A program made the position numbers. From Escherichia coli O127:H6 str. E2348/69 (GTDB taxonomy: Bacteria; Pseudomonadota; Gammaproteobacteria; Enterobacterales; Enterobacteriaceae), in NCBI RefSeq assembly GCF_000026545.1, contig NC_011601.1: 64,000 nucleotides of DNA; one strand, written 5' to 3'. Positions 42,901 through 45,900 of this stretch are shown piece after piece (the stretch's first letter is position 1; each line of letters opens with the position of its first letter).

Positions 42901-45900
42901 TTGCTTTTTGCCGTCAGCACCCGGCAATCTTCCTCATTGCGTGATGCCTTCCAGCTTAATTTCTTTATTTGCAATAGTTGCAGCTCATATCCGGGCTGAC
43001 TCCAGACTAGTAGTGAAATGCGCAATTTTGTAGAATTGCGCCTCCTCGCGACCTCCCCAGTGAATCTGTTGCCTCATTTTTTACATACTGCGTATTCGAC
43101 TTCTCCACCTGTTGCGCAAGAGAAACTGGGTTTATTCATTTTTGCGAGGCCGACTTCTTTCTGGACAGGACTTTATGCAGCACAACACACTACCGAAACA
43201 CGATCAGAAATTGCCGTTTACACGCTACGACTTCGGCTGGGTTTTATTATGCATAGGCATGGCGATTGGTGCCGGAACCGTGCTGATGCCAGTACAAATT
43301 GGATTGAAGGGAATTTGGGTATTTATTACCGCAGCGATCATTGCTTATCCTGCCACCTGGGTAGTACAGGACATTTATTTAAAAACCCTTTCTGAAAGCG
43401 ATTCCTGTAATGACTACACCGATATTATCAGTCATTACCTGGGGAAGAACTGGGGAATTTTCCTCGGGGTTATCTACTTTTTGATGATTATCCACGGGAT
43501 TTTTATCTACTCTCTCTCCGTGGTTTTCGACAGCGCCTCGTACCTGAAAACCTTCGGTTTAACCGATGCCGATCTTTCTCAATCTCTATTTTATAAAGTC
43601 GCCATTTTCGCCGTACTGGTGGCGATTGCGTCTGGTGGTGAACGATTACTGTTTAAGATTTCCGGGCCAATGGTGGTGGTCAAAGTGGGGATTATTGTCG
43701 TGTTCGGTTTTGCGATGATCCCGCACTGGAATTTCGCCAATATAACCGCCTTCCCGCAAGCCTCCGACTTTTTCCGCGATGTCCTGCTTACTATTCCATT
43801 TTGCTTCTTTTCCGCAGTATTTATTCAGGTACTTAACCCAATGAATATTGCCTATCGTAAACGGGAAGCGGATAAAGTACTGGCAACCCGGCTCGCGCTG
43901 CGTACCCACCGGATTAGCTATATCACGCTCATTGCGGTGATCTTGTTTTTTGCCTTTTCGTTTACCTTCTCAATTAGCCACGAAGAAGCCGTTTCTGCCT
44001 TTGAACAAAATATCTCGGCACTGGCACTGGCCGCGCAGGTGATCCCTGGGCATATCATTCATATCACCTCTACGGTGCTGAATATCTTTGCCGTACTGAC
44101 TGCATTCTTTGGCATTTATCTCGGTTTCCACGAGGCCATTAAAGGCATTATTCTCAATCTGTTAAGCCGAATTATTGATACCAGGAAAATTAACTCACGC
44201 ATGCTGACTCTGGCGATCTGCGCTTTTATCGTCATTACGTTGACGATTTGGGTTTCGTTTCGTGTATCGGTGCTGGTGTTCTTTCAGTTGGGAAGCCCGT
44301 TATATGGCATTGTGTCGTGCCTCATTCCATTTTTCCTGATCTCTAAAGTTTCACAACTGAAAAAACTACGCGGGCTAAAAACATGGCTTATCCTGTTTTA
44401 TGGTATTTTGCTGTGCTTTTCGCCGCTATTGAAGCTGATTGAATAAAAGTAACGGGGGCTGCTCACAGCAGCCCCAGACGATGTCGATAGCATTGCAGCA
44501 CAGCCTGGATATGATCCTGAGTCATAAAGGACTGCTCATACGTTTCCATAACAATGGCATTTTCTTTACGTATATCCTGAAAGAGTTTTTCCAGCAATCT
44601 GGGCGCTAACCCCATTGATTCACCCAACAGCAAAAAGTCCTGCCCGATATACTCGCCATAATCACTGTGAAATCCAGGAGCCAGTTCCCGACCGCCTTCT
44701 TCTCGCGTCAATAACGGCAGCGCCAGATAGTTTGAGTAAAAATATTCCGGATAGGGAGCGACAGAAACAAAGTCATACACCGGCGCTAACGCAGGCGTCA
44801 AACCATCGGAGTACACTAAGCCAAAGTTTCGTAAATGCATGTCGTTATTACCCAGCAACCAGGCGTAAACAATGCGACGAAAGAGATCGATTTTAAATGC
44901 GATGTTGTCGTTAACATGGGCAACTAAAAATCGGGCCAGCGTTTCATAGCTGACATATTGTTCGTTATCATTCCCCGTTTTGCCATATTTATCTGTAATC
45001 TGCATCGCGCCATCAAGCTGTTCCTGATGCACTGGCAGCCCCTTGTTATCCCGGTCATAGCGCCGGATAACAAATGCGTATTCAAGCTCTTCCTCTGATT
45101 GTGGTGCAAAACTCAACAGGCCATGCACAGGTACGTCAAATCCCAAACGAGACATCAATGTCATTGTTGCGTGTTCATTTTCGGCCAAACCGGGAAAGTC
45201 GGCTGGAGAGGGCTTAAGGATAAAATTTCCCTGATGATCTACGACGCGGAACTCTCCTTCATCCAGCACTAATTGCAATTTGGGCTGGTAACCGGAAATA
45301 CTCATCCCTTTTTGTTGACGCGGAAGTTCCTGCACAAACTGAGTTCGCGTAAACCCCAGCCGAGGATTCAATTTTGCAGTGCCGCTCAGTCGCTTCAACC
45401 CCTGTGTCGAATATCCGCGCTGTTCGTCACGTTCATTCAACGGCGTTAACAGAATACGACAATTCGCCATTATTCCTCCCAAGGTAAAATCTGGATGGCC
45501 CCCAGCAGATTCTTGCCGTTATCAATAAGCATTCCCAGCAGATCGTTTTCGTCACGATGCTGTATCTGGCTGTAGCGTTGACGCAGCCATCCTTCTGGCG
45601 CCAGTGAGGCGAAATAAGGATGCAACGTCTCACTGGGAAACTGACGCTGTGCGACGGGCAGACTGATTGAGATTGCCGGTCCGTGGTAATCGTGGGCGTA
45701 CTGGAACAAAAAACCACTGTCGTTCTGAGAGAGTTCACCCACTACCTGACCATAGAGCAACACTTTCACTCGCCGATGCATAGTTTCACTCCAAGAACAT
45801 TCGCCACCGCGAACACACTGCCGAATTTAACCTGTTCAGGATCCTTAAAAAGTCGCTTTAACGTGGACGTTGAGATCCCCGTTTGTAGTTCAAGTGTGTA

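Follow-up and report, generated by a model that had tools for sequence, protein, structure and literature searches.

The stretch analyzed here (the window) comprises 64,000 nucleotides of Escherichia coli O127:H6 str. E2348/69 (contig NC_011601.1), the enteropathogenic O127:H6 type strain, and carries hipBST, a tripartite toxin-antitoxin system in which HipT is the kinase toxin. The subject of this analysis is a ten-residue segment of HipT, GMSISGYQPK, and its two serines, Ser57 and Ser59. This segment is very probably the Gly-rich loop that binds the phosphates of adenosine triphosphate (ATP), equipped with two alternative autophosphorylation sites that are linked to control by the antitoxin HipS and do not form an off-switch. 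Sequence identity, operon anatomy, motif conservation, and the homology between Ser57 and Ser150 of HipA, the kinase of E. coli K-12 hipBA, were computed here, while phosphorylation, mutant phenotypes, and structures are taken from published work. The genes and residues concerned are as follows.

44463..45470, minus strand: hipT, a Ser/Thr kinase toxin of 335 amino acids consisting of HipA_C only; stop codon included
45470..45781, minus strand: hipS, an antitoxin of 103 amino acids homologous to HipA N-subdomain 1 (TIGR03071 couple_hipA, E value 1.4e-17, above cutoff)
45766..46089, minus strand: hipB, a helix-turn-helix protein of 107 amino acids and the first gene of the operon (RefSeq helix-turn-helix annotation)
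45279..45308, minus strand: codons of GMSISGYQPK, HipT residues 55-64, the Gly-rich ATP phosphate-binding loop with Lys64 included (translation; start of the Pfam HipA_C match)
45300..45302, minus strand: Ser57 codon AGT, aligned to HipA Ser150; a published autophosphorylation site, at which the S57D variant escapes HipS
45294..45296, minus strand: Ser59 codon TCC, aligned to HipA Ala152; the second published site, with phosphorylated Ser59 (pSer59) contacting Lys161, His212, and Asp210

The gene is hipT of the hipBST system of E2348/69, as an earlier note on this DNA had named it. The 1901 nucleotides around hipT match the E2348/69 chromosome at 100% identity, and chain C of PDB entries 7AB3 and 7AB4 equals the HipT of the window save for the engineered S57A and S59A substitutions, which are seen in the alignments (E value about 1e-229); chain C of 7AB5 scores nearly equally (E value 3.6e-228). 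The open reading frame extends on the minus strand from an ATG at 45470 to a stop codon at 44463-44465 and codes for 335 amino acids. The upstream TTG at 45482, which appears as the start of a 339-amino-acid entry in the list of open reading frames, was rejected in favor of the ATG, because the latter has GGAGG 4-5 nucleotides upstream and overlaps the hipS stop codon as TAATG; RefSeq WP_001262465.1 and the PDB entries use the same ATG. With this start the loop serines are therefore residues 57 and 59, exactly the numbering of the earlier note, and translation of 45279-45308 returns the ten residues exactly, on the minus strand, which that note had left unstated.

The architecture of the protein agrees with this assignment. 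Pfam HipA_C (PF07804) matches HipT residues 56-300 (E value 3.8e-38), and the loop falls at the start of the match, in keeping with its previous description as a P-loop-like, Gly-rich segment. Both the catalytic motif D210-M-H212-L-R-N215 (Asp-x-His-x-x-Asn) and the Mg-binding D233 were found, and the functional residues K64, K161, Y162, D210, H212, N215, and D233 occupy the published HipT positions. HipT is without the ~100-amino-acid HipA N-subdomain 1 (335 as opposed to 440 amino acids), so that the loop lies at residues 55-64 where that of HipA lies at 148-157. Upstream, HipS has its Trp65, HipB has a weak match to TIGR03070 (E value 3.9e-07, under the curated cutoff), and the genes overlap by 16 nucleotides (hipB/hipS) and 1 nucleotide (hipS/hipT). 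The protein thus belongs among the HipT kinases of tripartite HipBST systems on the basis of its kinase core, its short N-terminus, the hipS and hipB genes upstream, and its identity with HipT of strain O127:H6 (HipT-O127), for which the phosphorylation of the tryptophanyl-tRNA synthetase TrpS at Ser197 and the neutralization of HipT by HipS, not by HipB, have been published (PMC6581861, PMC10627512). There is no contrary evidence to the identification.

Within the loop, S57-I58-S59-G60 has two serines flanking a single small aliphatic residue, with the loop glycine immediately after them. A ten-residue segment could readily contain two serines by chance; it is conservation, not the serine count, that makes the double serine significant. 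Conservation was assessed with MAFFT in an alignment of the window's HipT, 120 homologues (49-99% identity), and E. coli K-12 HipA (from NC_000913.3). The HipA segment RISVAGAQEK stands opposite GMSISGYQPK, pairing Ser57 with HipA Ser150 and Ser59 with HipA Ala152, and the pairing of Ser57 with Ser150 agrees with the published alignment. A direct BLASTP comparison of HipT and HipA was also tried for the loop pairing and set aside, as its alignment began only at residue 60 and left the loop uncovered. Among the 121 sequences formed by the window and its homologues, S57, G60, Q62, P63, and K64 are invariant (121/121), Ser59 is present in 120 (at least 49% identity), and the triplet SIS in 118, with SLS, SMS, and SIP found once each; G55 is likewise invariant apart from two N-terminally truncated sequences that do not extend to it. 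At the DNA level, every one of the 160 E. coli genomes with the locus matches the 60 nucleotides around the loop at 99% identity or higher.

A deeper search, using representatives clustered at 50% identity, extends this pattern to distant relatives. Of the 96 relatives of HipT length (280-360 amino acids), 72 have the motif [S/T]-psi-[S/T], which prevails in relatives down to about 28% identity. In the remaining relatives of this length the second position is Q (8), A (8), G (4), or P (2, one of which is a misaligned N-terminal fragment), and two further sequences retain a serine at position 59 with none at position 57. The possibility that the double serine is exclusive to the split HipS/HipT architecture was rejected: 10 of the 23 mid-length relatives (361-480 amino acids) have the double S/T, and five of the six mid-length proteins scanned (P0165, P0179, P0262, P0224, and P0236) have a fused HipA N-terminal domain. 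The conservation in this survey agrees with the published conservation, in which S-psi-S is the largest group among 48 HipT orthologues and several groups have a residue other than serine at position 59 (PMC10627512). By its sequence pattern the HipT-O127 loop falls in the S-psi-S group.

Both serines have been addressed directly in published experiments on the same protein; the HipT of HipBST from E2348/69 (PDB 7AB3, 7AB4, and 7AB5) shares its locus, Ser57/Ser59 numbering, and tryptic peptide with the HipT of the window, with no difference. Vang Nielsen et al. 2019 incubated HipT-O127 with TrpS and applied liquid chromatography-tandem mass spectrometry, recovering the peptides GMS(1)ISGYQPK and GMS(0.001)IS(0.999)GYQPK, in which one or the other serine is modified, with localization probabilities of 0.99999 for S57 and 0.9992 for S59 (PMC6581861). 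The mass spectrometry that the earlier note had proposed as a check was therefore already in print, with both phosphoserines found. The same holds for the proposed toxicity assays, as Baerentsen et al. 2023 made and tested the variants S57A, S59A, S57D, and S59D (PMC10627512). Toxicity is abolished by S57A and nearly abolished by S59A, while each of these variants still autophosphorylates on the other serine, S57A purifying mostly as pSer59. Both S57D and S59D are still toxic; HipS no longer neutralizes S57D, whereas S59D is wild-type-like towards HipS. The structures show electron density for both pSer59 and phosphorylated Ser57 (pSer57). The S57A structure has pSer59 where the gamma-phosphate of ATP would lie, in contact with Lys161, His212, and Asp210. 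pSer57, for its part, is bound to Tyr162 and Asp210. In the HipBST complex the loop is directed outward whatever the phosphorylation state, with HipS Trp65 in the active site (PMC10627512).

Combined, these results favor a mechanism in which free HipT phosphorylates TrpS at Ser197 and so blocks translation, and Ser57 and Ser59 serve as alternative autophosphorylation sites of which one or the other is phosphorylated. The two serines appear to lie within a network that joins the active site, the loop, and HipS. By inserting Trp65 into the active site, HipS would hold the loop outward and unable to bind ATP, and a negative charge at position 57 would make HipT resistant to HipS. pSer59 would instead dock in the catalytic center at the place of the ATP gamma-phosphate. 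The loss of toxicity in the alanine variants, despite continued autophosphorylation, suggests that both hydroxyl side chains are needed for toxicity, probably through target engagement. Unlike in HipA, phosphorylation would neither eject the loop nor turn the kinase off. As in the papers cited, we infer that TrpS phosphorylation and affinity for HipS are each tuned separately by the two sites.

Several observations qualify this mechanism. The published S57A phenotypes clash, as Zhen 2022 found HipT-O127 S57A and S57D both still toxic (PMC9325769), in conflict with the fully non-toxic S57A of Baerentsen 2023 (PMC10627512), and all functional data on HipT come from overexpression. An inhibitory pSer59 in free HipT may be conceivable, since aspartate mimics phosphoserine only imperfectly and pSer59 sits where the gamma-phosphate of ATP would be. 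Further, about one in four of the diverse short relatives have Q, A, G, or P in place of Ser59, so that the second site is dispensable in some lineages.

The last of these observations bears on the alternative that fares best, though it is still unlikely, in which only Ser57 is regulatory and Ser59 is mainly a structural or ATP-contacting residue, phosphorylated as a side effect of lying close to the active site, above all when the protein is overexpressed or mutated. The near invariance of Ser57, set beside the substitutions at position 59 in the HipT-length relatives and in several published groups, would be expected under this alternative, as would the wild-type-like response of S59D to HipS and the fact that S59A only 'almost' abolishes toxicity. 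However, pSer59 was localized with a probability of 0.999 in wild-type HipT in vitro and is the state in which most S57A protein is purified, the loss of toxicity in S59A is close to complete, and Ser59 is all but universal among homologues at 49% identity or above.

A second alternative, somewhat more doubtful, regards the loop as a built-in pseudo-substrate that copies the target motif, so that the number of acceptor serines would track kinase specificity and would not reflect a purpose-built two-state switch. The autophosphorylation site G-M-S57-I-S59 shares the pattern M-S-x-S with the KMSKS loop of TrpS, K-M-S197-K-S199. The site in HipA, R-I-S150-V-A, has a single serine, like the target motif of GltX, K-L-S239-K-R. 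These two kinase-target pairs are the basis of the idea. One mass spectrometry table reports both serines of the HipT and TrpS peptides as phosphorylated (PMC6581861). The words KMSKS and pseudosubstrate are absent from the text of that paper, as are KMSKS and pseudo- from the text of PMC10627512, and the autophosphorylation site of the TrpS-targeting Caulobacter HipA2, a prospective third case, is not given in the literature text searched. Two conserved loop serines have also been described in HipH/YjjJ (Gerdes et al. 2021, PMC8262856). HipH (YjjJ, E. coli K-12) and those unsplit HipA-like kinases that have S-psi-S loops share the two serines of the Gly-rich loop with HipT but, unlike HipT, have a helix-turn-helix-fused or full-length HipA-type architecture. 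To our knowledge, loop phosphorylation in HipH and the unsplit S-psi-S kinases has not been mapped, and we know of no reported HipH target that is an aminoacyl-tRNA synthetase. With its two loop serines HipH is thus a likely counter-example to the pseudo-substrate idea.

More improbable still is an off-switch of the HipA type, in which either phosphoserine would disrupt ATP binding as pSer150 does in HipA and the second serine would be a redundant acceptor. HipA and HipT have the same HipA_C core (25% identity over 193 residues), and both autophosphorylate and target a class I aminoacyl-tRNA synthetase. They differ in the N-terminal subdomain, which is fused in the 440-amino-acid HipA; in the residue at the Ser59 position, Ala152 in HipA; in their targets (GltX for HipA, TrpS for HipT); and in their antitoxins (HipB for HipA, HipS for HipT). 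The positional homology of Ser57 and Ser150 is what such a switch would require, and pSer59 at the gamma-phosphate site of the S57A structure would compete with ATP. Yet where pSer150 inactivates HipA, with ejection of the loop, the HipT phosphomimetics S57D and S59D stay toxic, and the loop adopts the same conformation in HipBST whatever its phosphorylation state. The HipT of Legionella pneumophila (Lpg2370; PDB 7VKB, 7WCF, and 8EZR; E value about 5e-26 against the HipT of the window), described as a Dot/Icm effector, provides a further comparison. Its split HipBST architecture is like that of E2348/69 and its autophosphorylated Ser54 corresponds to Ser57 of HipT-O127, but its loop, MSVQGVQKK, is of the S-psi-Q type, with Gln56 at the place of Ser59. 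Zhen et al. 2022 describe Ser54 as the single acceptor and find nucleotide bound to the phosphorylated protein, with the loop turned inward, such that phosphorylation does not block ATP binding (PMC9325769).

The reading given in the earlier note is supported, with one qualification on mechanism. A serine aligned to the HipA autophosphorylation site is present and both loop serines are autophosphorylated, as the earlier note expected, but the switching-off of the kinase known from HipA does not extend to HipT, as the aspartate variants are toxic and the loop conformation in the HipBST complex is independent of phosphorylation. Its suggestion of a regulatory state more elaborate than that of HipA is borne out by the published experiments (PMC6581861, PMC10627512). 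Lastly, the notion that the double serine arose in the loop by chance and has no specific role has practically no probability left; serine is common and two in ten residues are unremarkable, but the motif is invariant or nearly so over homologues of 49-73% identity and predominant down to about 28%, and direct experiments show phosphorylation and mutant phenotypes, so that conservation and published mutagenesis together refute it.

The surroundings of the operon supply candidate control signals and indicate that hipBST is accessory DNA.

44448..46328, no strand: accessory DNA of about 1.88 kilobases carrying hipBST, replacing the yhjV/dppF spacer (BLAST of the K-12 junction against the window)
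44455..44475, minus strand: terminator-like GC-rich hairpin with a T-rich tail, overlapping the hipT stop codon (a pattern match from a consensus scan)
46217..46189, minus strand: candidate hipBST promoter TTGCCA-17-TAAATT upstream of hipB; promoter-like sites in the region are as numerous as expected from shuffled sequence
46166-46186: perfect palindrome of 7 base pairs, AACCATT-N7-AATGGTT, directly downstream of the candidate promoter and upstream of hipB

The hairpin has 9 pairs, 7 of them G-C, and the tail CGTTACTTTT. The palindrome is unique in the window, where 0.02 matches are expected by chance, and it is a possible operator for HipB, a function suggested by its sequence and position. 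In the text of PMC6581861 no word begins with 'inverted repeat' or 'palindrom', and its two uses of 'operator' concern type II systems generally and hipBA.

In E. coli K-12, yhjV and dppF are convergent and separated by a spacer of about 30-34 base pairs that contains a hairpin. Of 5426 complete E. coli genomes, 160 have the hipBST locus, in each case on the chromosome and in single copy; in the 25 records listed, among them an O25b:H4-ST131 strain, the match always overlies yhjV. No close plasmid copy of hipT was found, the best plasmid match being 47% identical and from Aliivibrio, and neither a mobility gene nor a flanking repeat could be seen for 44448-46328 in what was examined. Compared with K-12, both neighboring genes end differently as a result of the insertion. 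The last 136 nucleotides of yhjV (3' end, 44312-44447) are 84% identical to K-12, while the adjacent dppF sequence is 97% identical; because of this difference, the comparison suggests that the island arrived by a recombination that took in the 3' end of yhjV. On the other side, DppF has 337 amino acids in the window and 334 in K-12 (dppF 3' end, 46314-46330). Just downstream of the dppF stop codon, at 46278-46305, there is a perfect inverted repeat of 11 base pairs, ATGAGATCAGC/GCTGATCTCAT, with a loop of 6 nucleotides, which is probably the dpp operon terminator of E2348/69, in place of the K-12 hairpin lost to the insertion.

Elsewhere in the window several other features were recorded.

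41427-41885: IS200C tnpA, transposase gene
41895-42018, minus strand: STnc490 Hfq-binding RNA (Rfam), adjoining tnpA
42109-42216 and 42592-42699: ldr toxin genes, two Ldr coding sequences
42265-42330 and 42748-42813: rdlD, two Rfam matches
55031-60518, minus strand: long polar fimbriae operon lpfA-E, between eptB and yhjX; another accessory island
62296-62998: yhjY, autotransporter-domain protein, annotated as frameshifted (pseudogene) in E2348/69

The IS200C element (tnpA and STnc490) lies between bcsG and ldrD and is absent from the K-12 stretch compared. The ldr and rdlD rows form two tandem Ldr/Rdl type I toxin-antitoxin units at a position where K-12 has a single ldrD/rdlD.

The finding on the loop is real and was read correctly, and it was already known in full experimental detail for exactly this protein. 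No new biology is added, as mass spectrometry, mutagenesis, and crystallography had settled the point for the same protein. In the collection searched, the literature from 2024 onward held no more recent primary study of HipT phosphorylation. HipT belongs to a human pathogen and is a toxin kinase of the persistence type, and its dual phosphorylation loop represents the main mechanistic departure from HipA, in that antitoxin control would be modulated and the kinase would not be switched off.

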